64,000 nucleotides of DNA from Promethearchaeota archaeon (GTDB lineage: Archaea > Asgardarchaeota > Lokiarchaeia > Sigyniarchaeales > SOKP01). Positions 3,391-48,698 of the stretch are shown here, piece by piece. Where the stretch lies: contig JBHLMP010000006.1 of NCBI GenBank assembly GCA_048938025.1, positions 23,316-87,315 of the forward strand, in the 5' to 3' direction. The notes under the pieces were generated by a model that was given only the letters and a program-made list of their open reading frames with translations, made no database searches and was not told the origin of the DNA. Within the stretch, counting starts at the first letter, position 1, and each line of letters begins with the position of its first letter. A program made the position numbers and the translations under genes.

Positions 3391-3559
3391 TTTAATATTC
3401 TCCTAATTGGATATTCATTATAAATATATCAATAATAGATTTAAAGTTTTCCTTAAATCATAAATTTTTAGGGGAACTTCTAAATATTTCCTTTCTTGGA
3501 GGTGTTATGATATCTATAGCAAGATAATCACAATATTACCATTCTCTTTTTGTAGTATC

Positions 3560-3821
3560 TTTACTGGTGGATGAGGAAATTAAAAGATTTGTAAAATATT
3601 TATTATAAAAAGGATCTTGTTTATATCCTGATTTTGAAGTAAGAAACTGTTATTAAAGTAAAACTATTGAATTATGCTTCCACTGCGATGAATTTCCTTG
3701 TGAAAAAACTAATTTTGATTCTGATCTTAAGAGAAGGTGGATTCAAATGAATAATCAGATGAAAGAAATAGATATTAAATCATGCTATCAGAAGTCTAAA
3801 GATTTATCAAGGTATAGGTAA
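3560..3821 (+). pseudogene. Decayed duplicate of the 3' part of the DUF3795 gene
   Basis: nt 3612-3821 align base-for-base with 1039-1248. The core gatgaatttccttgtga...aggtggattcaaatgaataatcagatgaaagaa is nearly identical. The copy has in-frame stops and no start. Confidence 0.8.
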
Positions 3822-3839
3822 GATATTTCAAAAAAATAA

Positions 3840-4307
3840 TTAAGTTAAAGATAAAATAAATTTTCTAATTTTGTTACTATATAGTCCTTCTTTAATTTCT
3901 TTTTTATTAATTTCCAGAGTTGATAGTGGTTGTTTATCACATAATTTTGCTATGTTTTCAAATGCTTTATGATCTCCTTTCCCACCCTTAGTACAGAAAA
4001 AGGCAACATTCTTAATCTTACTCCTATACTCTGTAATATATGTTCTTATTGGCGTACTCATTCTTTTACTCCATATAGGCGTTCCAATTATGATTAAATC
4101 ATATAATTCAGGATTTTTTTCAATCTCTTTAATTATTGTTAATTTCTCTCTTGTAGCATCTGCACCAGCTCTAAGAAATCCTATAACTCCTGATCGCTTT
4201 TTAGTATCAAATATTTCTTCATACTCGCAATTTAACTCTCTTGAAATTAATTCACCAATCTTCTTTGTATTACCTGTTCTTGAGTAAAAAACTACTAAAA
4301 AACCCAT
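3840..4307 (-). CDS. Flavodoxin-family protein
   Basis: 155 aa. N-terminal FMN-phosphate loop VVFYSRTGNTKK. IIIGTPIW motif. Confidence 0.7.
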   Translation of the reverse strand: MGFLVVFYSRTGNTKKIGELISRELNCEYEEIFDTKKRSGVIGFLRAGADATREKLTIIKEIEKNPELYDLIIIGTPIWSKRMSTPIRTYITEYRSKIKNVAFFCTKGGKGDHKAFENIAKLCDKQPLSTLEINKKEIKEGLYSNKIRKFILSLT

Positions 4308-6154: not shown

Positions 6155-6778
6155 TTGAAAATGATTAAACCAATTATTATTAAAATATTTATTATCACAG
6201 TTATTAGTTTCTTTCTTATAGGATTGTTTGTACCTATGGCTATAATAAAAAAAAAAGGCAAAGATCCTCATGGAACACATGAAGGAGCTTCATTACTGAC
6301 TAGATTAACGCCTTATACTATTTTTACTTGGTTAACATATATTATTTTATTTGTCATAGATGGTAAAACAATCTTAAATTTTTTAGTTTTTGAATTTGTA
6401 ATTTCAGACATTTTCATATTTATCGGTATAATTATGATATCTTTGGGTTTACTAATAGATTTATGGGGAACAATCGCACTAGGAACTAACTTTAGGATTG
6501 AACTTCCAAAAGAAGAAATCTCTCTAAATACTACTGGAATTTATAGGTTAATGAGAAATCCCATTGTTATGGGAGTTTATTTGCTTGTTACTGGAAGTTT
6601 TCTTATTATTCCGACAATAATTTCACTGATCTTCTTAATAGCAAACATTTTGACTTTTGATTCAAAAATAAGAGATGAGGAAAGATTCCTTGCTAAACGA
6701 TTTGGAGAAGAATATAAAAATTATTGCACAAAAGTAGGAAGATATCTTCCATTTAGTATAATAAAGAATAAAAGATAA
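6155..6778 (+). CDS. ICMT/PEMT-family integral membrane methyltransferase (paralog 2)
   Basis: GIYRLMRNPIVMG...RDEERFLAKRFGEEYKNYCTKVGRYLP signature. Multi-TM. Confidence 0.7.
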   Translation: MKMIKPIIIKIFIITVISFFLIGLFVPMAIIKKKGKDPHGTHEGASLLTRLTPYTIFTWLTYIILFVIDGKTILNFLVFEFVISDIFIFIGIIMISLGLLIDLWGTIALGTNFRIELPKEEISLNTTGIYRLMRNPIVMGVYLLVTGSFLIIPTIISLIFLIANILTFDSKIRDEERFLAKRFGEEYKNYCTKVGRYLPFSIIKNKR

Positions 6779-6938
6779 CATGTGTTGGTGATAAGATATC
6801 AGGGAATCAGCAAATTATGGAAATTGGGTACCATTAAATTTATTATACTTTTTAATAGGTGCAAATTTAATTTTATTAATCCCTTCCTTATTCCCAATTC
6901 CTCTAATCGTTAGAATAGTATTATGGGTAATTATAGGA

Positions 6939-7562
6939 TTGCTTCTTTTACCATCTTCTTATTTATTTTATTTATTTTATAAATTTTCAGTAAATAATAA
7001 AGAGTTACAATATATGGTCTGGAATTTAGTCATCAATAAATTATCTTGGAATGGACAAGGCAAAGCGCTTGATATTGGCACCGGAGCTGGAGCATTAGCA
7101 ATAGAGCTTGCTAAGAAATTCCCTGAATCTAAAGTTTGGGGAATTGATTATTGGGGAAAAATATGGAATTATTCTAAACTTAAGTGCGAGAGAAATGCTA
7201 AAGTCGAGGGTGTTGCAGATCAGGTTGTATTTCAAAAAGCGCATGCTTCAAAATTGCCTTTTAAAGATGGTGAATTTGATGTTATTATGAGTAATTTCGT
7301 ATATCATGAAATTCGAGATGCAAAAGATAAAACCAAACTCATTAATGAGTCTTTTCGAGTTTTGAAAAAAGGAGGGGCCTTTTCTTTGCAAGATATCTTT
7401 AAAAGTAAAAAGAAATTTGGTGATATTGAACAATTAATCAGAGAGATTAAGAAATGGGGCATTGAGGAGGTTAATTTCATCGAAACAACTCAAGAAATTC
7501 CAATACCTAAGTTGTTGAAATTTGAACTCAAAACAATGGGTTTATTATATGGAGTAAAGTAG
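6939..7562 (+). CDS. Class I SAM-dependent methyltransferase
   Basis: Motif I LDIGTGAGALA, acidic loop GIDYW, post-I VIMSNFVYHE. The start is uncertain: TTG at 6939 or ATG at 7014, and the frame is open from 6795. Confidence 0.75.
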   Translation: MLLLPSSYLFYLFYKFSVNNKELQYMVWNLVINKLSWNGQGKALDIGTGAGALAIELAKKFPESKVWGIDYWGKIWNYSKLKCERNAKVEGVADQVVFQKAHASKLPFKDGEFDVIMSNFVYHEIRDAKDKTKLINESFRVLKKGGAFSLQDIFKSKKKFGDIEQLIREIKKWGIEEVNFIETTQEIPIPKLLKFELKTMGLLYGVK

Positions 7563-7569
7563 ACTTAAA

Positions 7570-8217
7570 ATGGGCTTAAAGCAAAAATTAGTTAATCAAA
7601 TAAGAAAACCTAGTGGAAAAGTAGGACGAATAATTGCCAGGGGTATGAATAAAGGGCATGCAAAATTAGCAAAGTGGGGTTTATCTAAAATTGTTATAGA
7701 ACCAAATTATATTATTTTAGATATTGGATGTGGGGGTGGGGGAAATATAAAGCGTTTTGCTGAGATTATAGTAGATGGAAAAATATATGGAATTGATTAT
7801 TCAGAAACAGCCGTATCGGTAAGTAAGGAAGTTAATAAGAGATATCTTGAAAATGGAACTGTTGAAATATACAATGCTTCTGTTTCATCTTTACCTTTTG
7901 AAGATAATTTCTTTGATATCATAAGTGGTTTTGAAGCTTATTACTTTTGGCCAGATTTACCAACAGATTTAAAAGAAATCTATAGAGTTCTTAAACCAAA
8001 AGGAAAAATAATTTTAGTTAATGAAGGGTATTTATGTAATAATGAGAAAAAAAGAAAAAAAGCTCAAATGTGGTCAGAATTGGGGAAATTTCCTCTTCAT
8101 ACTCCTGAAGAATATAATGATTTATTAACTAATGCTGGTTTTTCTAATATCCAAATTTTTGAAGAAAATAAAAAGGGTTGGATTACAATTATAGGTAAAA
8201 AAATTCGCGTTATATGA
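7570..8217 (+). CDS. Class I SAM-dependent methyltransferase
   Basis: Motif I LDIGCGGGGN, GIDYSE, LKPKGKIIL. Confidence 0.75.
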   Translation: MGLKQKLVNQIRKPSGKVGRIIARGMNKGHAKLAKWGLSKIVIEPNYIILDIGCGGGGNIKRFAEIIVDGKIYGIDYSETAVSVSKEVNKRYLENGTVEIYNASVSSLPFEDNFFDIISGFEAYYFWPDLPTDLKEIYRVLKPKGKIILVNEGYLCNNEKKRKKAQMWSELGKFPLHTPEEYNDLLTNAGFSNIQIFEENKKGWITIIGKKIRVI

Positions 8218-35040: not shown

Positions 35041-37197
35041 TCAAATTGTTACTAGAACTAAAATATAATTTACTATTCCACCTATTAATAAAGCAAGACC
35101 TATTTCAAGAGCAGATATTTGTAAGGCATATTTCCAATTAGTTTCTTTTGCGATTAATACTATTGTTGCAAAACAAGGGATATAAAGCATAGTAACTAAA
35201 CTAAATACAACCATTTGGCTGGGTGATAATAATACTAAGAGACTTTTTCCCATAGAATTTGCTAAAACTGCTAGGAGTACTAGGGTTAATTCTTTTCTTA
35301 AAATCCCATAAATCAAAAAAATTCCTGTAATAACTGGTAAACCTAGCCAAAATCTTGTTATTGGTGATAAAATAAAATTTATAGGATCTAACAAGCGAAA
35401 CTTAAATACTATTTCTAAAATAATACCAGCTATAATTATAATAGGCAATGCTTTATAGACAAATTCTTTAGTTCTTATCCATGTTTGTTTTAAAATTACA
35501 GAGTAATTTGGTGCTCTGTATTCATGCATTTCCATAATTAATTCTGTACATTGACCTGGCATCACCTTATTCAGTATTTTTCCAACAATAATTATAACTG
35601 AAAAATTTATTGAAAATAATATTAAAACCCAAATGATGCCTAGATATCGTCCAATCAAGCCCAAAACTACTGTCATAACCGCTGCACACGGGATTAGGGA
35701 GGTCAAAGCAATTGAAATCTTTTTCTCTCTTTCAGTTTCCATAATCCTACAACCAGCACAAGCAGGAACATTACATCCGAATCCTAAGATCATAGGAATG
35801 ATAGTTTTACCATGAACACCTATAAAATGCATAAATCTATCCAGGAGAAATGCTGCTCTAGGCAAATAACCGGAATCCTGTAGAATCTCAATTATCAAGA
35901 AGAATGGAATAACATATACCAAAACACCACCAATAGCTCCAAAAAATCCACCAATACCACCATCCCAAAATATTAAAACCAATAGATTTTGCTCACCATA
36001 TGTCTGATAAATTTTATCACTCCACATAGTAAAAACCTCCTCAATCAATCCCCCGAAAAAGTTACCGATAAGAAAAGTAAATAGAAATATACCAATAAGT
36101 ACTAATGCTAAAATTACATACCCCCAGAAATAATGAGTTGTTATATAATCAAATTTTTCAGTTAAAGAAATCTTCATTTTTTCTGAAGGCTTTACTATCA
36201 TTGCTTTTTCAATAACTGTATGTATATTATTGTAGATTTCAGCCGAAATTATTGTGTTGATATCTTCACCATGATATTCCTCTAGTTCTTTACGATATTT
36301 ATCAACTAATTCAAGAATACTGGATGTTTTTTCATTACTTTTGAATAATTTTTCTATTTCTTCATCGTTCTCTAAAATTTTAATCGCTAGAAATCGTGGA
36401 GGAAAATTATATTTTGAAAAGTATTCTTTATGAGTATCTATTTTCTTAATTAGGCTCTTAATTTTTATTTCAACTTCTTTTCCATATGAAAGTATAGAAT
36501 TTAAATCTGGAAATTGAAATGTTTTTTTAGCTGAAATATTTTGTATACTTTCTTTTAGAGAATACCTTTTTAAATGTTCTTCGTGAGTCAGATGTTCATG
36601 GATTTCTTTTCCCCCTTGAATATAATGAAAGTGAGGATGATGATACACAACTAATTCTATAGCTTCTTCAAGTAATTGATGTACACCTTTACCTTGAACT
36701 GCAATTATTGGAATAACAGGTAATTTAAAGATTCTTTCTAACTCTTCAAAATTAAGCTCAATATATCTTTTTCGTAAGAGATCCATTTGATTAATGGCTA
36801 ATATCATTGGTATTTTTAATTCTAATAATTGGAAGGTAAAGAATAAGTTACGTTCAAGATTTGTAGCATCTATTACATTAATGATAATGTCCACTTCATC
36901 TGATACAAGATACTCTCTACTTACAATTTCTTCTAATGAATAAGTAGAAAGAGAATAAATTCCTGGTAAATCTACTATATTAAAATGATAACCTAAAAAG
37001 CTTAAGTATCCTTCCATCTTCTCTACGGTTTTTCCTGGCCAATTTCCAATAGTTTGAGAGAGTCCCGTTAATTGATTAAATATTACTGACTTTCCAACGT
37101 TCGCGTTACCAGCTAAAGCTATATTAATTGTATCCTTATACTTTTCTTTCTTTAACCCTAGTTTTTCTTCAGATTTATAACTAATTGCTTTTCTCAC
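35041..37197 (-). CDS. feoB: Ferrous iron transporter FeoB
   Basis: N-terminal G domain GNANVGKSVIFNQLTG and DLPGIYSL, followed by a large polytopic permease domain. Confidence 0.9.
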   Translation of the reverse strand: MRKAISYKSEEKLGLKKEKYKDTINIALAGNANVGKSVIFNQLTGLSQTIGNWPGKTVEKMEGYLSFLGYHFNIVDLPGIYSLSTYSLEEIVSREYLVSDEVDIIINVIDATNLERNLFFTFQLLELKIPMILAINQMDLLRKRYIELNFEELERIFKLPVIPIIAVQGKGVHQLLEEAIELVVYHHPHFHYIQGGKEIHEHLTHEEHLKRYSLKESIQNISAKKTFQFPDLNSILSYGKEVEIKIKSLIKKIDTHKEYFSKYNFPPRFLAIKILENDEEIEKLFKSNEKTSSILELVDKYRKELEEYHGEDINTIISAEIYNNIHTVIEKAMIVKPSEKMKISLTEKFDYITTHYFWGYVILALVLIGIFLFTFLIGNFFGGLIEEVFTMWSDKIYQTYGEQNLLVLIFWDGGIGGFFGAIGGVLVYVIPFFLIIEILQDSGYLPRAAFLLDRFMHFIGVHGKTIIPMILGFGCNVPACAGCRIMETEREKKISIALTSLIPCAAVMTVVLGLIGRYLGIIWVLILFSINFSVIIIVGKILNKVMPGQCTELIMEMHEYRAPNYSVILKQTWIRTKEFVYKALPIIIIAGIILEIVFKFRLLDPINFILSPITRFWLGLPVITGIFLIYGILRKELTLVLLAVLANSMGKSLLVLLSPSQMVVFSLVTMLYIPCFATIVLIAKETNWKYALQISALEIGLALLIGGIVNYILVLVTI

Positions 37198-37277
37198 GAT
37201 TTAATTTTTTGAAAAATATAATAAAATAACCTTTTATTTTGAAAATTTAAGGCGTATGCTCTATATTATTAAAGAGT

Positions 37278-37568
37278 TTAGGTCCTTTCTTTTTTTACCA
37301 TAATTTTAGATGCTAAACCTCTACCAATAACTAAACAAGACCCTTTAACAATTATTTCTATAGGTCCTCTAAAAAGGGCTGATCTTTTTTTTATCATTTT
37401 TACTCCCGGGATAATTCCTAAATTAGCAAGTCGCTTCTTTGCCATATAACCGGCATGTACTCTTAATACTATTACTTCTTCACCATTTTGACAATTAGAT
37501 AATCTATCAATTTGCCGGTATCTATGATGCCTTCTAGTAGAATAATTATTATGGATCAATTTCATCAT
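37278..37568 (-). CDS. feoA: FeoA-family protein
   Basis: SH3-like FeoA pattern (EVIVLRV...RLANLGIIPGVKMIK...GPIEIIVKGSCLVIGRGLASKIMV). Directly upstream of feoB. Confidence 0.8.
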   Translation of the reverse strand: MMKLIHNNYSTRRHHRYRQIDRLSNCQNGEEVIVLRVHAGYMAKKRLANLGIIPGVKMIKKRSALFRGPIEIIVKGSCLVIGRGLASKIMVKKERT

Positions 37569-37909: not shown

Positions 37910-39058
37910 TTAAAACTCTTTATAATAAGAGATTAATGTATTTTTTATTTTTTCAAAATGTCCTAAATGCACCTTTAAGAGATCATCTAATGTTTCTCGG
38001 AGTCCTGCCTCTTGTACTTTCTTTAAGATTTTAAAATATGGTGATTCTTTGAGATTTTTTTCTAAAGGTTGATTTATTTCTGTACCTTTTAAGAGAAATT
38101 CGAGAGAGTCAACTTCTTTTACATTTATATTTTTTTGAATAATTTCTAACAACATTGTGTCAAAAGTAATCCTTAAAATAACTTCGTGATCAAAATCACC
38201 TGTTTTAGGCAATAGAACCTCCTTAAGAAGTGATATTGACTTTTGAAAGAGAGTAATTGAATCTTGTCCTAATTCTTTTATCTTTTGTCCAAAAGACCGA
38301 TTCTTAGTAAGAGTGAGACATAAAGTAGCTAGTGTTTGATATTCGGCTACAAAATGAATAAAGCGTGCTTTTGTGTTGAGAATTGTGTCTTTTGATTCTT
38401 CTTCACCTAAAAGTTCACCTAAATTATCAATAGATTTTCTGAAATATGTTGCTATTTCTAAGAATTTATTTGCTGAAGCTTCATAATCTTTGGCAGATAA
38501 TAGAAGAAGTGCATTTTTTTCTTCTTGTTCATATAATTCATCAAATTTGTTAATTCTCATAACAGCTTTTAAAATCAATCGTTTTCCTAAATCTTTTTTA
38601 ATACGAGAACGCTCATAAGCTTGTCCTGCTTTCAGAAGAAGAAGAGAAGAAGGGCTATGAAAGTCTTCTGGATCAGCTTTGATCAAATACTCAGAAGCTT
38701 TTTCCCAGCTTTCTCCAGCGGATTCCCAATCATTCATTTTATAAGAGAGATTTGCTAATCGCATGAGTAATTTAGCTGAGATTTCATATAGCTTTAATTC
38801 TTCAGTCTTTCTAATTATTGATTTTAATCGATAAAGTGCTTGAATATTATTCTTAAATTGAGATATAATCTGAACAATTCTAATAAATAATTCATCTAAT
38901 TTGATATAACTCCCTAAATCAATATAAATTTCAGCAGCTTTCTCATAAAGATCGATAGCTTCATCTCCTTTACCTTTATCAGCAAGATTCTCCGCTCTAT
39001 CAATTAATTGAATTGCTTCTAATTCTCTATCATCGTTATATGTATTACTAAACACCAT
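37910..39058 (-). CDS. All-helical TPR-like repeat protein (hypothetical)
   Basis: Repeated helix-hairpin patterns such as EAIDLYEKAAEIYIDLGSY and NDWESAGESWEKASEYL. Confidence 0.45.
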   Translation of the reverse strand: MVFSNTYNDDRELEAIQLIDRAENLADKGKGDEAIDLYEKAAEIYIDLGSYIKLDELFIRIVQIISQFKNNIQALYRLKSIIRKTEELKLYEISAKLLMRLANLSYKMNDWESAGESWEKASEYLIKADPEDFHSPSSLLLLKAGQAYERSRIKKDLGKRLILKAVMRINKFDELYEQEEKNALLLLSAKDYEASANKFLEIATYFRKSIDNLGELLGEEESKDTILNTKARFIHFVAEYQTLATLCLTLTKNRSFGQKIKELGQDSITLFQKSISLLKEVLLPKTGDFDHEVILRITFDTMLLEIIQKNINVKEVDSLEFLLKGTEINQPLEKNLKESPYFKILKKVQEAGLRETLDDLLKVHLGHFEKIKNTLISYYKEF

Positions 39059-39227: not shown

Positions 39228-40115
39228 TTATTGATGATAAAAGAGCTTAATATTTCGATTTTTAACTATTTTTTTAAATTCGAAGCTTTGGTAAGCAGAT
39301 GAGAATGATTCTTTAGCATCTTCTATAGCTCCATAAAAAATGAAATTAGAAAACCATGTTGCAATAGACATTATACTAGCTCTTCTATAACGTGTATGGA
39401 ATTTAATATTTAGACGCGGTGATGAATATTGAAATAAGAATAGATTAGGTGCTGTGCCAACTGGAAGTTCTAGTGATGAACTAATTAAGCGTTGAGTTTC
39501 TAATATATGGGCTAAACTCTCCAAATTAATAACACCTCCATCAATCCAAATCTTTTTAACTCCTAAGTCTTTTAAACCTTCCAAGAGATTTACATTATTA
39601 GGTTGGTTTTTTTCCGTAATGTAAGCATATCTTTGAGTAGACGTCATATTTTCAGAGCTTATTATTAAAACCACTACTGAAAGTATTTTATATTTCTGAA
39701 TTATTTTTAATTCTTTATCGTTCTTTAAATTCGAAATGGTATTATAAATATATTGGTCGGGTTTAATACCTCTTTCATTAAGATATTCGACTCCACAAAT
39801 TCTAGACTCAAAATTTCCACCTAATACAAAAGGAGGATTAAAATGTTTCAAATAAAAAGCTAGATAACTAATCATAGCCTTGGGTGTAGATGCGGATATT
39901 TCAACTAAATTAGGTATTTTGTATTGATTTGATAATGAAATTTGTGTATTTATTGACTTTAAAGCTTTTCTCTCATCGAAAATTTCACTATTCTTACGAT
40001 TAACAAACGATTGACCTTGATAAAAAAGTGTCCCTATTAATACAGGGGGTAAATCAAAACTCCCTCGACCTACTTTTATGTGTCCGTAGGAATAAAATTT
40101 TGATTCTTTCATCAT
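39228..40115 (-). CDS. MtrH-family (pterin-binding) methyltransferase-like protein
   Basis: PPVLIGTLFYQGQSFV...EIFDERKA, IYNTIS and LPVGTAPN blocks parallel those of MtrH. Confidence 0.6.
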   Translation of the reverse strand: MMKESKFYSYGHIKVGRGSFDLPPVLIGTLFYQGQSFVNRKNSEIFDERKALKSINTQISLSNQYKIPNLVEISASTPKAMISYLAFYLKHFNPPFVLGGNFESRICGVEYLNERGIKPDQYIYNTISNLKNDKELKIIQKYKILSVVVLIISSENMTSTQRYAYITEKNQPNNVNLLEGLKDLGVKKIWIDGGVINLESLAHILETQRLISSSLELPVGTAPNLFLFQYSSPRLNIKFHTRYRRASIMSIATWFSNFIFYGAIEDAKESFSSAYQSFEFKKIVKNRNIKLFYHQ

Positions 40116-40582: not shown

Positions 40583-41785
40583 TTATTGAAGGTCAAGTTT
40601 GACACCACATTTTTTACACTGAGAATCTAATAATTTAACAAAGCAATCTTCATGGTATAGTTGACCACATTCTGGGTTACCACATTTAACTACTTTTTGA
40701 CCTTTCTCAAAAATAAATTGGCATATAGGACAACTTAAATAGAGATCATCCTCTCTAAGCGCATCAATATTCATTAATTTTGCCGAAAATGTCTGTGGTT
40801 TCTGAAAACTAGTTTCTTTTTTACCTTTTGAAAGAACCCTTAATTTCTGTATTTGGGAAACTTCAGTTGGGATTTTTAATAGATAAAAGCAGTGGGGACA
40901 CCTTGCAGTTCCAGATTTTTTTAATATACTGCTTTGTTGAGAATCTGCCCATGCTGCTAAACAATGAATATGAAATGGAGTTTGACAATTAGGACAATAT
41001 CTACCAGTAATATAAAATGATCCTTTAGTATATGGATTTTTATCAGAAAAGCAGATTGAGCATTTTTTAAAATCAGCTTCTCCTCTCAACTGTTTTATAC
41101 GCTGTTCTTGATCTTTTGTTAAATCTTGAACTCTTAATAAATTTGCAGCTATTTTCCTAAGGAAAGCTGGATTTTCAATATCGATTTTCTTTACTCCATA
41201 ATTTTTTACGTTAGCTTCAGCAAATTCATGAGCAGATTGTAATAAAGTTCCTCCATCATTATTAAAATAATATCTACCTCCTGTGAGATCACTTATTTTT
41301 TTTAAGATATTGACTTGGCTCGCGTCTCCAATTCTAAAAGTATCAATTTTTATATTTAATCCTTCTGCAAGACGAGCCATTCTTAAAGGATCGATAGCTG
41401 TATTTTTTGAATAGTTTCCATCAGAAATAAGAAGTATTTTAGGATTTTTAGCAGCAATTTTTCTTAATTCAGCAATAACAGTTTTAATTGATAAAGCTAG
41501 CCCTTCTCCCATATCAGAATTCCCTCCTAGTTTTATAGAATCCAATGCTGAAAAAAGGCTATTTATAAAAGTTGAAGTTGTAAAGTCTATAACCTTTTCT
41601 GCTATATCAGAAAATTTAATAATTGCAAACGCACTTGAAGTATCTAATTTAAATCTATCAGTTATTAATTTTTTAACAGCTTTAATACAACAAATTAATC
41701 GATTAGGAGTATAATCTGTTCTAAACATTGATCTTGATGTATCGATGCAAATAACGATATTTTCAGGGACTCTTTGCTCAGACAT
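40583..41785 (-). CDS. vWA-domain protein (p44/Ssl1-Rpn10-like) with two C-terminal C4HC3 cross-brace zinc fingers
   Basis: MIDAS DTSRSM followed by DYTPNRL. LTGGRYYF block. Finger 1 (aa 242-299): C-x2-C-x18-C-x2-C-x4-H-x2-C-x20-C-x2-C. Finger 2 (aa 352-393): C-x2-C-x12-C-x4-C-x4-H-x2-C-x8-C-x2-C. Confidence 0.65.
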   Translation of the reverse strand: MSEQRVPENIVICIDTSRSMFRTDYTPNRLICCIKAVKKLITDRFKLDTSSAFAIIKFSDIAEKVIDFTTSTFINSLFSALDSIKLGGNSDMGEGLALSIKTVIAELRKIAAKNPKILLISDGNYSKNTAIDPLRMARLAEGLNIKIDTFRIGDASQVNILKKISDLTGGRYYFNNDGGTLLQSAHEFAEANVKNYGVKKIDIENPAFLRKIAANLLRVQDLTKDQEQRIKQLRGEADFKKCSICFSDKNPYTKGSFYITGRYCPNCQTPFHIHCLAAWADSQQSSILKKSGTARCPHCFYLLKIPTEVSQIQKLRVLSKGKKETSFQKPQTFSAKLMNIDALREDDLYLSCPICQFIFEKGQKVVKCGNPECGQLYHEDCFVKLLDSQCKKCGVKLDLQ

Positions 41786-41996
41786 CTTATTTTGAAAATC
41801 TTATTGAGAATTTTGTTAGACAAAATCTAATAAATCTATTTTATATATGTATATTAATTTATAAATAAATAACAGTCTTCAGAAAAATAAAGTTTTATTT
41901 TCAATTATACTAATATTTAATAAAACGTTTTACAACTATTAAAATAAAGAATATATTATAAAATTAAAAAGTAAATGTAATTTAATCTGATGCATA

Positions 41997-43205
41997 ATGT
42001 CAGAGAATAGTGAAAAAGAGATTATTATTAAAGATTTTTTTAAAAGTAATGTAATTTTCTCAGAATTAGATGAAGTTTTAAGATTAAAGCCAGAAACTAT
42101 GATTGGTATAGATAAAGTAAGTTCTGATAAATTAGTTGAACATAATATCAAAACTGTTGAAGATCTAGCCAATCTATCAGTTGATAATCTCCCTGAGATT
42201 GAAGATTTATTACCTAATATATTTAGTAAGTGGGTCAAAATAGCTCAAGTCATACAAAAAGCTGTAAAAGAACAGTTAAGACGTCATAAGAAGCTTTTAA
42301 TGATCGGCTTAGATGCAGCGGGTAAAACATCAATCCTAGCAATAGTTCAAGATAAATTCTCGATTATAAAATCCTTGTTACCAACTAGAGGTGTAAAAAG
42401 AGAGAAACTAGACTTTTTCGGTTACCCGATTATAAGCTGGGACCTCGGAGGCCAAATTCAATATCGTGAGAAGCTATACTTCAATAGACCAGAATTATTT
42501 TTCACCGAGGCTGACCTTCTTTTATATGTTATTGACAGTCAAGATTTAGAAAGATTAACAGAATCAGCTAATTATTTTCGGGAAGTTCTAAATTCCTTAA
42601 TAGATTTACATGAGCAACCAAAGATTTTAATAGTTCTTAGTAAAAGTGATCCAGACTTTCGTAAATCATTCCAATGGCAAAAAAATGTTGAAAGTATCAG
42701 AAATAAATTTGACAAAGTTGCCGATGAATATGAGCAATTCACTGTAGATTATTGTGATACATCAATATTTCAACCCACGACCATCTGGCAAATGTTTAGT
42801 ATTGCCTTGAAGAAAGTTTCTGAAACTTCTGAAATTATCGAAAATATTCTTGAAGATTTTACTAGTCAGGTTGAGGGGAAAGCATCAAGTTTAGTTTCGA
42901 TGGACGGATTAATTTTTGGCAGTTATACCAAAACTAGTACTGATGAGATGTTAGTAAATAATACAGCACTTCTATTGCAAACACTTTCGAATTTTTATAA
43001 TTCAATTGGTCTTATTAGAGAAAAAACAATAAGTCTTGATTTACCACTTAATGGGTTTACTATTCGGGGTGAAAAATTGTTTGAGTATTCAGAGCTTCAA
43101 ATACCTGTATATTTATGGCTGCTTTCGGAAAACCCAGAATTATTACGAGGTAAAATTGATTATTTTAGAACACAATTATTGCCTTTGATTAACTTGTTCA
43201 TCTGA
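41997..43205 (+). CDS. Arf-like small GTPase with N-terminal HhH-like segment and C-terminal roadblock/LC7-like domain
   Basis: G1 GLDAAGKTS (Arf-type), switch I LPTRG, G3 WDLGGQ, G4 SKSD. aa ~280-402 show an alpha-beta-beta-alpha-beta-beta-beta-alpha pattern (ASSLVSMDGLIFGSY...). Confidence 0.7.
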   Translation: MSENSEKEIIIKDFFKSNVIFSELDEVLRLKPETMIGIDKVSSDKLVEHNIKTVEDLANLSVDNLPEIEDLLPNIFSKWVKIAQVIQKAVKEQLRRHKKLLMIGLDAAGKTSILAIVQDKFSIIKSLLPTRGVKREKLDFFGYPIISWDLGGQIQYREKLYFNRPELFFTEADLLLYVIDSQDLERLTESANYFREVLNSLIDLHEQPKILIVLSKSDPDFRKSFQWQKNVESIRNKFDKVADEYEQFTVDYCDTSIFQPTTIWQMFSIALKKVSETSEIIENILEDFTSQVEGKASSLVSMDGLIFGSYTKTSTDEMLVNNTALLLQTLSNFYNSIGLIREKTISLDLPLNGFTIRGEKLFEYSELQIPVYLWLLSENPELLRGKIDYFRTQLLPLINLFI

Positions 43206-43242
43206 TTTCAACTTTTTTTTAAAATTATCTTACCATTTTAAT

Positions 43243-43455
43243 TTATTCTAATTTCTTATTAGCTGTAAGTAAATATTCATTGCACTTTTCCATCATCTCA
43301 ATTGCTTTATTCAAATCATCAACAATTGAATCTAAACCTTTACTTTTTGCAATATCGCGCCATTTCAAAAATGATTCTTTGTGAGAATCATTGTGATCTG
43401 CCCAATGTTTCAATAATTTAGATAATTTTAAAATATCCTTATCTTGTTTATCCAA
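43243..43455 (-). CDS. Hypothetical small helical protein with HxxxHxxxH motif
   Basis: 70 aa. Contains HWADHNDSH. Lies downstream of cdhA but is separated from it by a T-run. Confidence 0.4.
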   Translation of the reverse strand: MDKQDKDILKLSKLLKHWADHNDSHKESFLKWRDIAKSKGLDSIVDDLNKAIEMMEKCNEYLLTANKKLE

Positions 43456-43603: not shown

Positions 43604-45952
43604 TTATGTATGGCATAATCTCTGAAGGAGAGTTGGATCTATAATCTCTTTTGGTTTCCAGCCCCTTTCTTTTAGATATTCTACGATATCATCTTTCATG
43701 CTAATAGGAATATCTGCCTCTACCCTAATGAATTTTTCTAAATCATTTGGGAATTTAACGCCCTTATATTTGCGTTCTAAGTCAATCCAATGAGAAAGCT
43801 TTATCATTCTTCCTTTCGAATTATCTGCTGGTCTTAAACACATTTTAGCAGTTAAACAAATAGCTTGTTCAATGGTTTCAGCTGTAGTTAATAAGTGTTC
43901 TGGACCAGGTCCAACTAAATGATCAGGAGTTCCATCTCTTGCATTCCATACCCTCCAGCTATCCTCATCGTCAGATCTACCAATATACATTCTTCTATAT
44001 TCTGCTGAATGTGGTCCAACAATTGCTGGTATACCCATACCATTTGCACTACTAGCAATACTAGCTGCTTTTTGGCTCATTGCACCCCACGCAACCCCCA
44101 CAGCTCCAACTCTGTTTAAAATATAATCAGAAATCTCTTCATAATTACCCCGGAGTGGTCTTCGGGCGAAAATGTTAGCTATTTTGATTGCAGCTCCATT
44201 AATGTGAGGATTTGAAACACATGAACCTACATTGACTAAGCCTCCTCTATCAAAATCACCAGGATATCGGTCATATAATGTTTTACCTTCCTCATCTTTA
44301 ACAAGCCCTATATCCATTGCTCCACAGCCTGATACAACTACAATATAATTACGTTTACAAAATTCTTCTGCCATTAATGCCAATTCCTGAATTTCTTTAC
44401 CATAATTAGCACAGCCAATGATGGCAACAACTCCCGGAATTTCTCCTAAGACTACAGGAGCTCCAACATTCCTGATTTCAACATCTTGAATTGGTCCTCT
44501 CCCAACTCTTATATTAAACGTCTCATTTCTGATCTTTTCTCGTCCAGCATACATGAGCAGTGTGAGTGGGGATACGTTCTTCATACAATCGGCTTCACAC
44601 CTACCACAATCTAAGCAATGATCAAAAGCATCAGCAAGAACAGAAAAATCTCCTTCCTTAACTAATCTAATTCCTTCAACAAGAGGTAAATCATTTGGAC
44701 AATTTCTCTGGCAATTTCCACATCCATTACAATGATAAGCCATTTCAATACAACCCTGCTCTTCTGGAACAGCGCTTTTTCCAGCTCTAATTGGTTTTAC
44801 TTTAATAGCAGTTTCAACAGCAACTTGACCTGCTTTTATAGGATCAAGAATTAGTACTCCCTCTGCTTTTCCACTAACTAAATCATCTATAATCTCTTCT
44901 ACTGGATCATCTGTTCTATCAGGCAAACCATTCATATTTTTTTCATTTGTCGCTATAAAAGGAGCATTAACCAGTTTTGCTTGCTCATAACTTCTTAGAT
45001 TTACACATTGTTCATCAACCATAACAACATCTGCTAAACCTGAACGGATATAGTGCATTTGTCGAGAAAGTGAACCAACAACTTTAGCTCCATCGTAATA
45101 ACGAGTTAAATCTAGAGCTGTGCAGCAAATCGCACCAACATCTACTTTATCTGATAGATTTTTTTCTCTCATATAATCGACGAGTTCTATTCCAGGTGCT
45201 ACATTATGACCTATCATTAGGATTGTTGATTTGTTTTCAGTATCCATTGTCCCCATACCTAACTCTACAAGTGGGACATCTGCTTCTCCCATTGGAAAAC
45301 CATATGCTGCAATTTGTACAGCATCTGCAATTTCCATACCGACAGCATCAGCTAAACCTGCTAAAAACGATTTTGCCTCGTAATCCAAATAACTTGCTTC
45401 TTGACCGGTATGTCCTGCAGCTAATAAGTGTGTAATAGTATAATGTACCCATTCCATTGCGGTCTCTAAATCCTCTAACGTTTCAGGTTTCATACCAACA
45501 ATTAAACGTGTACATGGCATTTCAACTTCAATGTTAGTTCCATAATTAATAGGTACATTGCCATATTTTTCTTTTAACCAATGTAATAAGTGATCTCCAT
45601 GAGCGCTATGACATGATGCTCCAATACAACAAGCAATTTCTACAATTCTCGATTGTTGAGTCTCCATATTGATTCCACAGGCTCCTGTTCTGCCTTTTGA
45701 TAAGTTACATTTACCAAAAGTACAAAGACAACACATGTCACAAATGGGCATATAAAATGGCTTATACCTCTCCATTAATTTGAAAAACCAACTACGCAGT
45801 GTAGGAATATGTGGTTCAGGAGTAGGGCCCATAGGTTCCCATTCTGTTTCGTCTCCGTATGAAACCTTTCCAGTAGTCAACTCGAAACCTTTTATTGTAC
45901 CCAAGGGTCCTTTATAAGAGTCTATTTTGAGTTTTGCGCCTTTTTTACTCAT
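43604..45952 (-). CDS. cdhA: Acetyl-CoA decarbonylase/synthase complex alpha subunit (anaerobic CO dehydrogenase catalytic subunit)
   Basis: N-terminal CDMCCLCTFGKCNL...GACGI cluster. Two ferredoxin-type CxxCxxCxxxCP motifs. C-terminal CODH blocks. Confidence 0.9.
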   Translation of the reverse strand: MSKKGAKLKIDSYKGPLGTIKGFELTTGKVSYGDETEWEPMGPTPEPHIPTLRSWFFKLMERYKPFYMPICDMCCLCTFGKCNLSKGRTGACGINMETQQSRIVEIACCIGASCHSAHGDHLLHWLKEKYGNVPINYGTNIEVEMPCTRLIVGMKPETLEDLETAMEWVHYTITHLLAAGHTGQEASYLDYEAKSFLAGLADAVGMEIADAVQIAAYGFPMGEADVPLVELGMGTMDTENKSTILMIGHNVAPGIELVDYMREKNLSDKVDVGAICCTALDLTRYYDGAKVVGSLSRQMHYIRSGLADVVMVDEQCVNLRSYEQAKLVNAPFIATNEKNMNGLPDRTDDPVEEIIDDLVSGKAEGVLILDPIKAGQVAVETAIKVKPIRAGKSAVPEEQGCIEMAYHCNGCGNCQRNCPNDLPLVEGIRLVKEGDFSVLADAFDHCLDCGRCEADCMKNVSPLTLLMYAGREKIRNETFNIRVGRGPIQDVEIRNVGAPVVLGEIPGVVAIIGCANYGKEIQELALMAEEFCKRNYIVVVSGCGAMDIGLVKDEEGKTLYDRYPGDFDRGGLVNVGSCVSNPHINGAAIKIANIFARRPLRGNYEEISDYILNRVGAVGVAWGAMSQKAASIASSANGMGIPAIVGPHSAEYRRMYIGRSDDEDSWRVWNARDGTPDHLVGPGPEHLLTTAETIEQAICLTAKMCLRPADNSKGRMIKLSHWIDLERKYKGVKFPNDLEKFIRVEADIPISMKDDIVEYLKERGWKPKEIIDPTLLQRLCHT

Positions 45953-46318: not shown

Positions 46319-46858
46319 ATGAGCAGAGCCAAAAGTCCTTTTTATAAAATATGTATAGTAGGAGACACTGGAGTTGGAAAAACTACATTAATGCATCAAT
46401 ATTTAGATTATAGATTTTTAGCAAATATCAGATCCACTATTGGTTCAGATTTTTTTATAAAACATCTTCAATTACCCGAAGATCATCAATCATTTACACT
46501 TCAAATTTGGGACTTAGCTGGGCAACAACATTATAAATGGGTAAGAAATGCTTTTTATAAAGGAGCGAAAGGAATTGTTTATGTATTTGATCTAACTCGA
46601 AGAGACACATTTGAAAATATTCCAAATTGGAAAAGTGAGGTTGAAGATGTTATTGGAGTTGTACCAAATATGTTTGTAGGTAATAAATTGGACCTTATTG
46701 AATCTATAGGGAGATTAGTAACAGATGAAGAAACACAGAAAATAAAAGGTGAATTAAATTCTATTAGATACGTAGAAACAAGTGCAAAAAAGGGTTTTGG
46801 GGTAAAAGATATTTTTCTTAATTTAACAAGAGAAATTTACAGTTCATGTCGAAAATAG
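46319..46858 (+). CDS. Rab/Ras-like small GTPase
   Basis: G1 GDTGVGKT, G3 WDLAGQ, G4 GNKLD, G5 ETSAK. 179 aa. No CaaX box (ends SSCRK). Confidence 0.85.
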   Translation: MSRAKSPFYKICIVGDTGVGKTTLMHQYLDYRFLANIRSTIGSDFFIKHLQLPEDHQSFTLQIWDLAGQQHYKWVRNAFYKGAKGIVYVFDLTRRDTFENIPNWKSEVEDVIGVVPNMFVGNKLDLIESIGRLVTDEETQKIKGELNSIRYVETSAKKGFGVKDIFLNLTREIYSSCRK

Positions 46859-46920: not shown

Positions 46921-47517
46921 TTAAAGGGTAGAGAGAAAATCAGAAACTGCTTCTTCTGACGGTTCTGGATCGACAACAGAACTATCTAGTTCTTCACCTA
47001 TTATATCAAATGTATATGTGCATTTATCAGCACCTAATAGAACACATTCAGATTCCCTTCCATCAACATCAATTTTTAAGATTTCAAATACCCCTTGGAA
47101 GATGCCTAAGTAAAGTAAGCACAGGTTTTTAGCCATAATGTTATCTTCTTCTTGAGATGCTAGAGGATCATTTACACCTATTTGGATTTTATTTTTTCCA
47201 AAGTGTGCTCTTAATTGTCCATAGCCCATTAATTCCATAGATTCAAGAATACCTAGAAAAACATCTTTTTTAGTAGCAATATTTTCAAGAGCCCAATCTT
47301 TATTGTAAAAGAATTTTTCCATAAAAGATCTTCCCAGGGTTTTTCCTACCCAAGTTAATATATCATCAGCATTTGTACCAGCAAATTCAGTGAATTCGAT
47401 TAAGTCAATAGGTCTTAACATTAATAAGCGCATATCTTTCTTTTTTTCGCCGAAAAATAGTTGTCCTAATTTCTCGTCAATCATTAGTTGTAATTCTTTT
47501 TTCAATCTTTTTGACAT
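46921..47517 (-). CDS. V4R-domain protein (TRAPP Bet3-like fold)
   Basis: 198 aa. LRPIDLIEF...GKTLGRSF and the C-terminal conserved Cys pair ECVLLGADKCTYTF are typical of V4R. Confidence 0.6.
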   Translation of the reverse strand: MSKRLKKELQLMIDEKLGQLFFGEKKKDMRLLMLRPIDLIEFTEFAGTNADDILTWVGKTLGRSFMEKFFYNKDWALENIATKKDVFLGILESMELMGYGQLRAHFGKNKIQIGVNDPLASQEEDNIMAKNLCLLYLGIFQGVFEILKIDVDGRESECVLLGADKCTYTFDIIGEELDSSVVDPEPSEEAVSDFLSTL

Positions 47518-47642: not shown

Positions 47643-48698
47643 TTAAGAAGCGACCAAATTAAAAATTGTTTGGATTACAGCATCAAGATTATGTTTAGTC
47701 TTTACTGAAGTGAAAAGAAATGCCCAATCTCTATGTTTAATATCTTCAAAATTAAAAAAATCATATAATTCTTCTTTTAATTTCTCTAGTTGATTTTCCC
47801 TGCTTTTTTCTGAAGATTTAATTAAATCTATTTTATTACCCACGATCAATAAAGGAATACCGAACAAATCATCTCTATTCACAATATTCCAGAATTCTTT
47901 TTTTGATTCTTCAAATCGTATTTGGTTAGCTATATCGATCATAAATACAACAATATTTGAGTCTTGTAAGCCAATCAACCATTTTTTTCGAAAATTTTGT
48001 TGACCTGGCATATCCCAAAAAGCCAGTAACCCTTTTTCTTGTTTTTCAATATATTCAATATTGAATTTTCGAGTCGGAGCAAAGAAATTATCATTGAATT
48101 CACCTGTTTTTATTCTTCTTACAAGGGATGTCTTGCCAACTTCATCAATTCCAAATAAAAAGACTTTAATAAATAATTCTTGCTGGTAATGATAGACAAT
48201 TTTAGGAGGTTTTTCAATAATTTCATCCCCATATCTTCTAATATCAATGAACATCGAAATTAGCAAATTTTCTATTTCAATTTCATCATCAAAAGAATAT
48301 ACTGTTCCATTAATTAATAATTCACTCAATAATTCTTCAAAAATTTCTTTATAATCATAAGGATTATCTTCTTCATCAAAAATTAGACCAATAAGTATTT
48401 TTCCATTTATACAAGATGTGTATATATTTAAATCATTAACAATTTGTGCAACAGGCTTATCAATTTTATAATGATTTGATTTTTCAGTTAAATCAGGGTT
48501 ATAAATTGATAAATTATTATGGATATTATTCTTGTTATTTAGATTTGCCTGATCATGACCAGTAATAATCATATTAACAAGATTTTTGTCATTGATATTT
48601 ATAATTTCATTTGGATAGCTATAGATATTAAGATCTTTTAAGTCTTGAAATTTTTTCCCTTTAAATAGAAAAATGTTATGTAACAATGAAATTTCCAA
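47643..48698 (-). CDS. Arf-like small GTPase with ~165-aa N-terminal extension
   Basis: G1 GIDEVGKTS, switch I APTRK, G3 WDMPGQ, G4 GNKID. The N-terminal region has no recognised motif. Confidence 0.75.
   Translation of the reverse strand: MEISLLHNIFLFKGKKFQDLKDLNIYSYPNEIININDKNLVNMIITGHDQANLNNKNNIHNNLSIYNPDLTEKSNHYKIDKPVAQIVNDLNIYTSCINGKILIGLIFDEEDNPYDYKEIFEELLSELLINGTVYSFDDEIEIENLLISMFIDIRRYGDEIIEKPPKIVYHYQQELFIKVFLFGIDEVGKTSLVRRIKTGEFNDNFFAPTRKFNIEYIEKQEKGLLAFWDMPGQQNFRKKWLIGLQDSNIVVFMIDIANQIRFEESKKEFWNIVNRDDLFGIPLLIVGNKIDLIKSSEKSRENQLEKLKEELYDFFNFEDIKHRDWAFLFTSVKTKHNLDAVIQTIFNLVAS

Follow-up and report, generated by a model that had tools for sequence, protein, structure and literature searches.

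Small GTPases in which a Rag-like G domain is followed by a C-terminal roadblock domain are already known from Asgard archaea. Roadblock domains fused to Rag-like GTPases were reported in Lokiarchaeum in 2016 (PMC4917890). Tran et al. (2024; PMC10933270) noted that many such GTPases are annotated as Arf and that the GTPase-roadblock architectures bear an insert in switch II, and their supplement catalogues the architectures 'GR', 'LGR', 'GRX' and 'XGR', where X is an unknown domain. A RagGtr clade has also been described in which the eukaryotic Rags are nested among Asgard sequences (bioRxiv 10.1101/2024.02.28.582541), and Asgard Rag-like GTPases have been crystallised, with three PDB entries from 2025-26. 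We have analysed a gene of this kind at positions 41997-43205 of a 64,000-nucleotide stretch of DNA (the window) from a Promethearchaeota archaeon (contig JBHLMP010000006.1, positions 23,316 to 87,315). We read it, with a probability of about 0.82, as an Asgard Rag/Gtr-like ('RagGtr') small GTPase of helix-hairpin-helix (HhH)-G-roadblock, or 'XGR', architecture. Asgard Rag-like GTPases bear on the origin of eukaryotic nutrient-signalling and membrane-identity switches; the gene adds one well-defined and strongly conserved Promethearchaeota orthologue family and leaves the current picture unchanged. What is new here is modest, namely that X is an HhH domain, the pattern of conservation along the protein, and the pairing with a gene for a vWA protein with RING-type zinc fingers (vWA-RING). 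The leads that follow from this, an X domain of the NusA-AR2/Rad51-N type, a roadblock domain that is the most constrained part of the protein and a candidate vWA-RING partner, give a testable handle on the partners of an archaeal Rag-like switch.

The gene and the parts of its product, in nucleotide positions of the window, are:

41997-43205, forward strand: complete gene for the HhH-G-roadblock Rag-like GTPase, 402 residues, from the list of open reading frames (ORFs) and its translation; stop codon TGA at 43203-43205
41997-42281, forward strand: N-terminal (HhH)2-like domain, residues 1-95, from the AlphaFold 2 (AF2) model, profile searches, Pfam HHH_5 and Foldseek
42102-42179, forward strand: HhH motif IGIDKVSSDKLVEHNIKTVEDLANLS, residues 36-61, with hairpin G-I-D where paralogues have the canonical GIG
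42282-42824, forward strand: G domain, residues 96-276, from Pfam Gtr1_RagA and Arf and from BLASTP against human RagA
42306-42332, forward strand: P-loop (G1) GLDAAGKTS, residues 104-112; G104, G109 and K110 invariant in 52 diverse relatives
42375-42395, forward strand: switch I LLPTRGV, residues 127-133, with Thr130; T130 invariant in the 52 relatives
42438-42455, forward strand: G3 and start of switch II, WDLGGQ, residues 148-153, with Gln153; motif read, and aligned to an Arf chain and to RagA
42639-42650, forward strand: G4 SKSD, residues 215-218; K216 and D218 invariant, relatives mostly with Rag-type HKxD
42753-42767, forward strand: G5 CDTSI, residues 253-257; matched by hhalign to the RagA FRTSIWD / RagC LTSIYD region
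42825-43202, forward strand: C-terminal roadblock domain (CRD), residues 277-402, from AF2 topology and Foldseek; no Pfam match by sequence
43213-43220, forward strand: run of eight T read in the sequence, the first T 8 nt after the stop (7 nt between)

The window has a G+C content of about 30%, and the eight-T run is likely to be an archaeal oligo-T terminator. The encoded protein is identical to NCBI MFX1320625.1, 'MAG: ADP-ribosylation factor-like protein [Promethearchaeota archaeon]' (MAG, metagenome-assembled genome). It has 561 homologues, and the top 120 of these are nearly all 402 residues long. All the GTP-binding elements are kept, comprising Lys110/Thr111, Thr130, Asp149/Gly152/Gln153 (with the catalytic Gln) and Lys216/Asp218; G151 and G152 are also invariant in the alignment of 52 relatives. 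Because these elements are all retained, the protein most likely would be a functioning guanine-specific GTP/GDP switch.

The top structural match is LokiRagO (PDB 8YL2, 'homo-tetrameric RagA-like small GTPase from Asgard Lokiarchaeota'), which has the same unit of G domain and C-terminal roadblock, superposes with a target-normalised template-modelling (TM) score of 0.78, and shares the GLDN/AGKT P-loop, the DLGGQ motif and a long switch II. The two differ at G4 (HKFD against SKSD in our protein) and are only about 27-35% identical, so that LokiRagO is a different paralogue and not the orthologue. The alignment begins at residue 34 of its chain, and the roughly 33 residues before its G domain do not accommodate a 95-residue HhH domain. 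A second entry, LokiRagM (8ZLA/9M28, 'monomeric Rag-like small GTPase from Asgard Lokiarchaeota'), has a homologous G domain (3e-28, 34% identity), but there the G domain is N-terminal, an extra C-terminal region is present, global superposition is poor (TM 0.35-0.45) and the protein is described as monomeric. These descriptions are the PDB titles, no paper on 8YL2, LokiRagO or LokiRagM having been found in the literature searched. Apparently, 8YL2 is MK-D1 protein WP_147663357.1, an 'XGR' protein in Tran et al. 2024, and 8ZLA/9M28 is WP_147662243.1, a 'GRX' protein. We did not find the MK-D1 orthologue of our protein in the alignments of the Tran et al. supplement, the text of which is damaged by optical character recognition, so that absence is not implied.

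Eukaryotic RagA/B, RagC/D, Gtr1 and Gtr2 likewise share the arrangement of G domain and roadblock, the length of switch II and the TSI of G5. They are 17-23% identical to our protein, which departs from them in its Arf-like P-loop and switch I, its SKSD and its additional HhH domain. The eukaryotic proteins are obligate heterodimers, whereas our protein has no paired paralogue in the window. Neither Ragulator nor TORC1 is known from the archaeal setting.

Several comparisons place the protein with these Rag/Gtr GTPases. The Pfam profile Gtr1_RagA (PF04670) matches with 78.6 bits (cut-off 22, E-value 6e-22) over residues 99-316, covering positions 1-218 of its 232-position model. Against PDB sequences, where matches are counted among the 60 best listed, phmmer returns 8yl2 at 4.7e-33 (residues 87-394), 8zla/9m28 at 3e-28 and then Arf/Arl proteins at about 1e-12. 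With a profile of the family the order becomes 8yl2 (4e-86), 8zla (1e-64), human RagA (3.6e-33), Gtr1 (1e-29) and Arl3 (2e-28); the match to RagA spans positions 93-368, and thus both G domain and roadblock, whereas that to Arl3 is confined to 86-214, the initial two-thirds of the G domain. BLASTP aligns the query with human RagA at 2e-12, gap-free through switch II (residues 154-172), and hhalign of the family against human RagA gives a probability of 99.4, with DTSI matched to RTSI and the alignment continuing into the first roadblock strands. We also constructed a neighbour-joining (NJ) tree from 179 columns with Kimura distances, 200 bootstraps and MglA as outgroup, the reference sequences of human RagA, RagC and Arf1 and Thermus thermophilus MglA having been verified against PDB chains. 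In this crude tree the family joins LokiRagO, LokiRagM, RagA and RagC at 61% bootstrap, and MglA and a Rab-like protein encoded elsewhere in the window fall outside that group.

The predicted structure is consistent with this placement. The AF2 model of the single chain, built from an alignment of 52 relatives with 23-89% identity to the query, has a mean predicted local distance difference test score (pLDDT) of 90.6, a predicted TM score of 0.84 and no segment below 50, and comprises three domains. The first contains helices at residues 3-12, 24-29, 40-48, 54-58 and 73-91/94. The second is a Ras-like G domain running from strand beta1 (98-104) to a helix at 260-274. The third is composed of a helix at 278-291, strands at 294-301 and 306-311, a helix at 314-336, strands at 344-349, 354-364 and 369-377, and a final helix at 387-399, with pLDDT of about 88-95. 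An earlier note on this DNA, made from the letters alone, had proposed an alpha-beta-beta-alpha-beta-beta-beta-alpha pattern for nucleotides 42834-43202 (residues 280-402), and the model has exactly that order, final helix included; a C-terminal helix is the mark of the full roadblock as opposed to the shorter LC7 type (PMC10933270). In Foldseek the model ranks LokiRagO first (8YL2, E-value 4e-21) and RagA next (4e-17), followed by Gtr1, Gtr2 and RagC. Its superposition on RagA, RagC, Gtr1 and Gtr2 takes in about 300-313 columns at target-normalised TM scores of 0.76-0.79, whereas Arf/Arl chains cover only about 180-200 columns. The C-terminal domain is thus predicted to be a roadblock in the Rag arrangement, and the Rag/Gtr-like architecture proposed earlier is upheld.

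Several points weigh against this interpretation. With the query sequence alone, the G domain lies closer to Arf/Arl chains than to the eukaryotic Rags, which are not among the 60 PDB matches listed. The support of 61% is low and comes from a crude NJ method. G4 is SKSD in the query and its orthologues rather than the HKxD of Rags, the Lys and Asp being kept; in the nearest outgroups of the orthologue group it is HKSD or NKSD. The isolated C-terminal domain has no Pfam match at E-values up to 10, Robl_LC7 (PF03259) included. Since Pfam is silent here, the roadblock assignment rests on the predicted fold; of the three profiles that the earlier note had suggested, Arf and Gtr1_RagA match and Robl_LC7 does not. 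Finally, dimerisation through the roadblock is a proposal drawn by analogy.

Conservation along the protein was gauged in a scan limited to one genome per species, which found relatives in 102 genomes, of which the best 80 were analysed. These match the query at 67-96% identity along essentially their whole length. Almost all come from Promethearchaeota-type MAGs; the other Asgard labels on some of them, and a bacterial label on one, are probably matters of binning or labelling. The bacterial-labelled locus (L058, DATKTW010000126.1, 'Candidatus Nanopelagicaceae bacterium') encodes a full-length orthologue of 69% identity in the same Asgard synteny, and is probably a mis-binned Promethearchaeota contig. 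Across the 80 orthologues the median identity rises along the chain, from 60% in the HhH domain through 73.5% in the G domain to 82% in the roadblock, which is therefore the most conserved part. These identities point to purifying selection that is strong on the GTPase as a whole and strongest on the roadblock domain.

This conservation lends itself to another explanation, in which the protein is a fusion of the MglA-MglB type and the roadblock is its own GTPase-activating protein (GAP) or exchange factor, acting in cis or in trans within a dimer, and not a passive platform for dimerisation. As in that system, a small GTPase is functionally coupled to a roadblock fold. MglB and other roadblock proteins are established regulators of GTPases (PMC9481161), and Tran et al. 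noted that these Asgard paralogues lack the switch I arginine of MglA and 'may require GAPs' (PMC10933270). MglA and MglB, however, are separate polypeptides. The G domain of our protein is 19.9% identical to T. thermophilus MglA and lies outside its branch in the rough NJ tree; the earlier note had itself named a grouping with MglA-like GTPases as an outcome contrary to its proposal. The list of the 60 best PDB profile matches does not include MglA, and the modelled placement of the roadblock relative to the G domain is that of the Rag/Gtr chains. In Rag structures, moreover, the roadblock makes no contact with the nucleotide pocket of its own chain. We therefore regard this explanation as quite improbable, and an MglA-like identity for the GTPase was rejected on the grounds of the low identity, the position outside the MglA branch and the Rag/Gtr-like arrangement.

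Less probable again is that the protein is, as NCBI annotates it, an Arf-family GTPase with an Arf-like interswitch toggle that has acquired unrelated flanking domains. Our protein does share GLDAAGKT, PTxG and WDxGGQ with Arf/Arl and Asgard ArfR proteins, its best eukaryotic single-sequence matches are the Arf/Arl proteins noted above, and on the G domain alone Arf (68.4 bits) and Gtr1_RagA (68.2 bits) are tied. The P-loop was earlier described as identical to that of Arf/Arl throughout GLDAAGKTS, which is true of GLDAAGKT in comparison with Arf1 but not of the ninth residue, which is S here and T in Arf1. With the whole protein as query, the match to Pfam Arf (PF00025; 69 bits, E-value 4e-19, residues 93-219) covers only positions 10-127 of the 174-position model and ends at G4. 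Beyond the Arf-like motifs, the switch II/alpha2 segment has the length of RagA and is 5 residues longer than that of Arf (aligning an Arf chain there takes 1+4 gap positions), G5 has the TSI of Rags, and a roadblock follows. An Arf-like amphipathic helix abutting the G domain is lacking: residues 1-95 fold instead into a domain of five helices (pLDDT 90). The model superposes on Rag/Gtr over its full length, and the family groups with Arf1 in 0-1% of bootstrap replicates. A plain Arf identity was accordingly rejected on the basis of the partial profile cover, the Rag-length switch II, the TSI and the Rag/Gtr fold.

The protein thus combines a P-loop and PTxG switch I of Arf type with a switch II length, G5 TSI and contiguous C-terminal roadblock of Rag type. 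The same mixture is found among its relatives. In an exhaustive search yielding 2240 hits, with motifs tallied on the 150 best representatives of 50%-identity clusters, the P-loop is nearly always the Arf-like GLDxAGK[TS], including GLDNAGKT, while G4 is mostly the Rag-like HKxD, with minorities of NKxD, TKxD or SKxD. The mixture is a trait of the Asgard RagGtr family. The earlier note had called the G domain Arf-type while describing the protein as a blend of Arf-like and Rag-like features; its reading of WDLGGQ and of the atypical SKSD was accurate and the blend is borne out, whereas the Arf label holds for the motifs and the Arf match but, given the tie between profiles, not for the G domain as a whole. 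That interpretation is supported as correct but is not new, the mixture being a documented signature of a large Asgard family. A more precise name than the annotation 'ADP-ribosylation factor-like protein' would be 'Rag/Gtr-like GTPase with an N-terminal HhH domain'.

The N-terminal domain had been described as HhH-like, a resemblance that is sub-threshold for the query sequence by itself and significant at the level of the family. Alone, the query matches Pfam HHH_5 with E-values of 0.0026-0.026 and 15-19 bits (18.6), where 27 would be needed; its match to NCBIfam nusA_Cterm_rpt has an E-value of 3e-6, under the cut-off of that model. We used 27 N-terminal domains of the family both as a profile and one by one. 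Against the PDB, the 27-domain profile matches the acidic repeat AR2 of Escherichia coli NusA (1.1e-5, profile positions 34-90), the thumb of Pol IV/Dpo4 (2.5e-4), the N-domain of RAD51D (1e-3), the N-domains of RAD51/RadA (5e-3 to 7e-3) and, at 0.04, the C-terminal domain of RNA polymerase alpha; the HhH of Pol beta also matched. Individually, HHH_5 is detected in 14 of the 27 members (best 9e-7) and DUF4332 in 10. Modelled alone, the domain reaches a pLDDT of 90.2, and its top Foldseek matches are all HhH domains (NusA AR2, Dpo4 thumb, RAD51 N-domain), with weak E-values of 0.09-0.7; the best, NusA AR2 (6ib8_C), superposes with a root-mean-square deviation of 1.8 Å and 30% identity over 54 columns. 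As judged from the profile matches, the resemblance is true homology at family level.

Representatives of the wider family fall into three length classes, of about 300-320 residues with an N-terminal G domain, about 390-420 residues with an extension of about 95 residues, and about 470-510 residues with a longer N-terminal domain. The extension of the middle class is homologous to that of the query, the alignments extending to query residues 8-30. Where many relatives have 'hxGIGxxxxxxLxxxGIxTIxDLA' the query has IGIDKV...NIKTVEDLA, and its hairpin, G37-I38-D39, is not the canonical G-h-G that serves for phosphate contacts, whereas several paralogues have GIG. At the aligned hairpin the acidic repeats of NusA have GVD and DID. 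The query domain thus resembles NusA AR2 in its G-h-D hairpin and its acidity (net charge -5, isoelectric point (pI) 4.9); it differs from NusA AR2 and from the (HhH)2 domains of Rad51/RadA in being fused to a GTPase, in having an extra helix (residues 3-12) and in that its last helix leads straight into beta1 of the G domain. Charge varies within the family from -6 to +8, and some paralogues are basic, with pI up to 10.

The acidic repeats of NusA are protein-binding modules and are not known to bind DNA. The acidic charge, the G-I-D hairpin and the likeness to NusA AR2 favour protein docking over DNA binding, so that, by analogy, the HhH domain more likely docks a protein partner; it may nevertheless bind DNA or RNA, especially in the basic paralogues that keep GIG. 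Least probable of the alternatives is a nucleic-acid-associated GTPase whose HhH domain would bind DNA or RNA and tether the switch to chromatin or the transcription machinery, possibly in concert with its p44/Ssl1-like vWA-RING neighbour, since the matches to the DNA-binding HhH of Pol IV/Dpo4, RAD51/RAD51D and Pol beta, the basic GIG paralogues and the closeness of the neighbour's vWA domain to TFIIH p44 are set against an acidic query domain with a G-I-D hairpin, a charge that varies across the family and a best match, by sequence and by structure, to a protein-protein module.

For the Rag/Gtr-like GTPase, known here from its sequence and a single-chain model, we propose the following. The protein would cycle between GTP- and GDP-bound states. 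On the model of RagA/C, Gtr1/2 and free-standing roadblock proteins, its roadblock domain would mediate oligomerisation and could serve as a platform for regulators of the roadblock/longin type, a role that fits the standing of this domain as the most conserved part. Searched against the ORFs of the window, the query returned itself alone with phmmer; with BLASTP it matched, besides itself, only an Arf-like fusion protein (47643-48698, 2e-5) and the Rab-like protein (46319-46858, 0.08), and no second Rag-like paralogue was found in the 64 kb by BLASTP. Given that no paralogue is nearby and that LokiRagO is described as a homotetramer, the protein is, by analogy, more likely a homo-oligomer than a Rag-like heterodimer. 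Elsewhere in the family, locus L004 (GCA_019058355.1), from another Promethearchaeota lineage, carries tandem HhH-G-roadblock paralogues of 404 and 402 residues (1532-2746 and 2834-4042), 45% and 51% identical to the query. This pair, which could be a Rag-like heterodimer, is reminiscent of an operon pair of MK-D1 for which Tran et al. modelled a heterodimer like that of Gtr1 and Gtr2 (PMC10933270).

The HhH domain and the roadblock helices of our GTPase would be presented to partners, for which the vWA-RING protein encoded next to it appears to be the best candidate. The features flanking the gene that bear on this are:

40583-41785, reverse strand: vWA protein with C-terminal RING-type zinc fingers, 400 residues (Pfam VWA 1e-14, Ssl1 3e-9, zf-RING_2 9e-8)
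41786-41996, no strand assigned: AT-rich divergent intergenic region of 211 bp, shared with the vWA-RING gene, from an alignment of 40 orthologous regions
43243-43455, reverse strand: convergent downstream gene of 70 residues with a TTG start, His-rich (…HWADHNDSHKESF…), its orthologues belonging to DUF8180 (PF26551)
37910-39058, reverse strand: TPR/SNAP-like helical-repeat protein of 382 residues (Pfam TPR_12; weak SNAP, MIT and RPN7), syntenic in orthologous loci

The vWA-RING protein carries two RING/PHD-like zinc modules at its C-terminus, an architecture that recalls TFIIH p44/Ssl1, and the closest solved structures to its vWA domain are TFIIH p44 (1.3e-5) and Rpn10. Its gene lies divergently upstream of the GTPase gene in all 70 loci with enough flanking sequence. 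The divergent spacer has a median length of 217 bp and, at 39 of the 40 loci where it could be measured, spans 173-228 bp; conserved AT-rich boxes within it, at about 41838-41868 and 41908-41925, are candidate TATA and B recognition (BRE) elements. On the other side of the GTPase gene, a 70-residue gene of the DUF8180 type is convergent in 77 of 78 loci, although the copy in the window (43243-43455) has no Pfam match in our scan. The TPR/SNAP-like protein, compared with PDB sequences, gave only designed-repeat noise. At the same loci median identity is 73% for the GTPase, 84.5% for CdhA, 65% for the vWA-RING protein and 64% for the TPR/SNAP-like protein.

The link between GTPase and vWA-RING protein is one of gene adjacency, and among close orthologues this could reflect collinearity. 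MtrH, the TPR/SNAP-like gene and CdhA are likewise syntenic in orthologous loci, so that much of the adjacency is general collinearity. Four further clades of HhH-bearing paralogues (P0124, P0130, P0141 and P0144) have unrelated neighbours and no vWA-RING gene beside them. More telling than the synteny of close orthologues is its occurrence beside a distant HhH-bearing relative, P0127 (locus L008), 36% identical to the query, whose divergent neighbour is again a full-length vWA protein with a double RING, 41.5% identical to that of the window. The composition of the protein suggests that the P0127 genome is much more G+C-rich. A TPR/SNAP-like copy of 29% identity (2515-3618 of L008) adjoins the vWA-RING gene there. 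Adjacency to a vWA-RING gene is thus specific to the orthologue line of the query and P0127.

A larger proposal, which we consider unlikely though less so than the explanations dismissed above, is that the HhH-Rag GTPase, the vWA-double-RING protein and the SNAP/TPR-like protein form a conserved functional module in which the Rag switch would gate a RING E3-like (ubiquitin-type) activity, or the assembly of a scaffold, through the HhH domain. If true, the module would be an archaeal signalling unit of GTPase and ubiquitin ligase that has no described counterpart.

Locus L008 also encodes a short Rag-like paralogue of 298 residues downstream of P0127. Between this paralogue and the HhH-Rag-like gene lie two tandem genes (6395-8184) for proteins of about 290 residues that have a C-terminal Arf-like G domain and a common N-terminal region (…KAAEFL…VYMFVGAGTIEG…).

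In the wider window the GTPase gene stands among core metabolic genes. By sequence reading alone, the reverse strand encodes FeoB-like (718 residues; G domain and membrane domain) and FeoA-like (96 residues) iron-transport proteins at 35041-37568. An MtrH-like gene lies at 39228-40115 and the alpha subunit of carbon monoxide dehydrogenase/acetyl-CoA synthase (CODH/ACS) is encoded at 43604-45952. The Feo, MtrH-like and CODH/ACS genes indicate a setting among core metabolism and not a mobile island. The CODH/ACS alpha and MtrH-like genes, taken with the Rab-like, V4R and Arf-like fusion genes of the window, are what one would expect in a Lokiarchaeota/Promethearchaeota genome.

Beyond these genes, the Arf-like fusion protein at 47643-48698 (reverse strand) has 351 residues, with an Arf-like G domain at its C-terminus (Pfam Arf 2e-28; GIDEVGKT, DMPGQ, NKID). 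Its N-terminal region of about 170 residues has no Pfam match, and the protein may belong with the fusions of a GTPase to a longin or roadblock domain that have been described in Lokiarchaeota. The Rab/Ras-like small GTPase at 46319-46858 (forward strand) has 179 residues and matches Pfam Ras at 8e-45. A 198-residue protein at 46921-47517 (reverse strand) has a weak match to V4R, of the TRAPPC3/Bet3-related superfamily. Together, the Rab-like, V4R and Arf-like fusion proteins make up a local group of trafficking-type signature genes.

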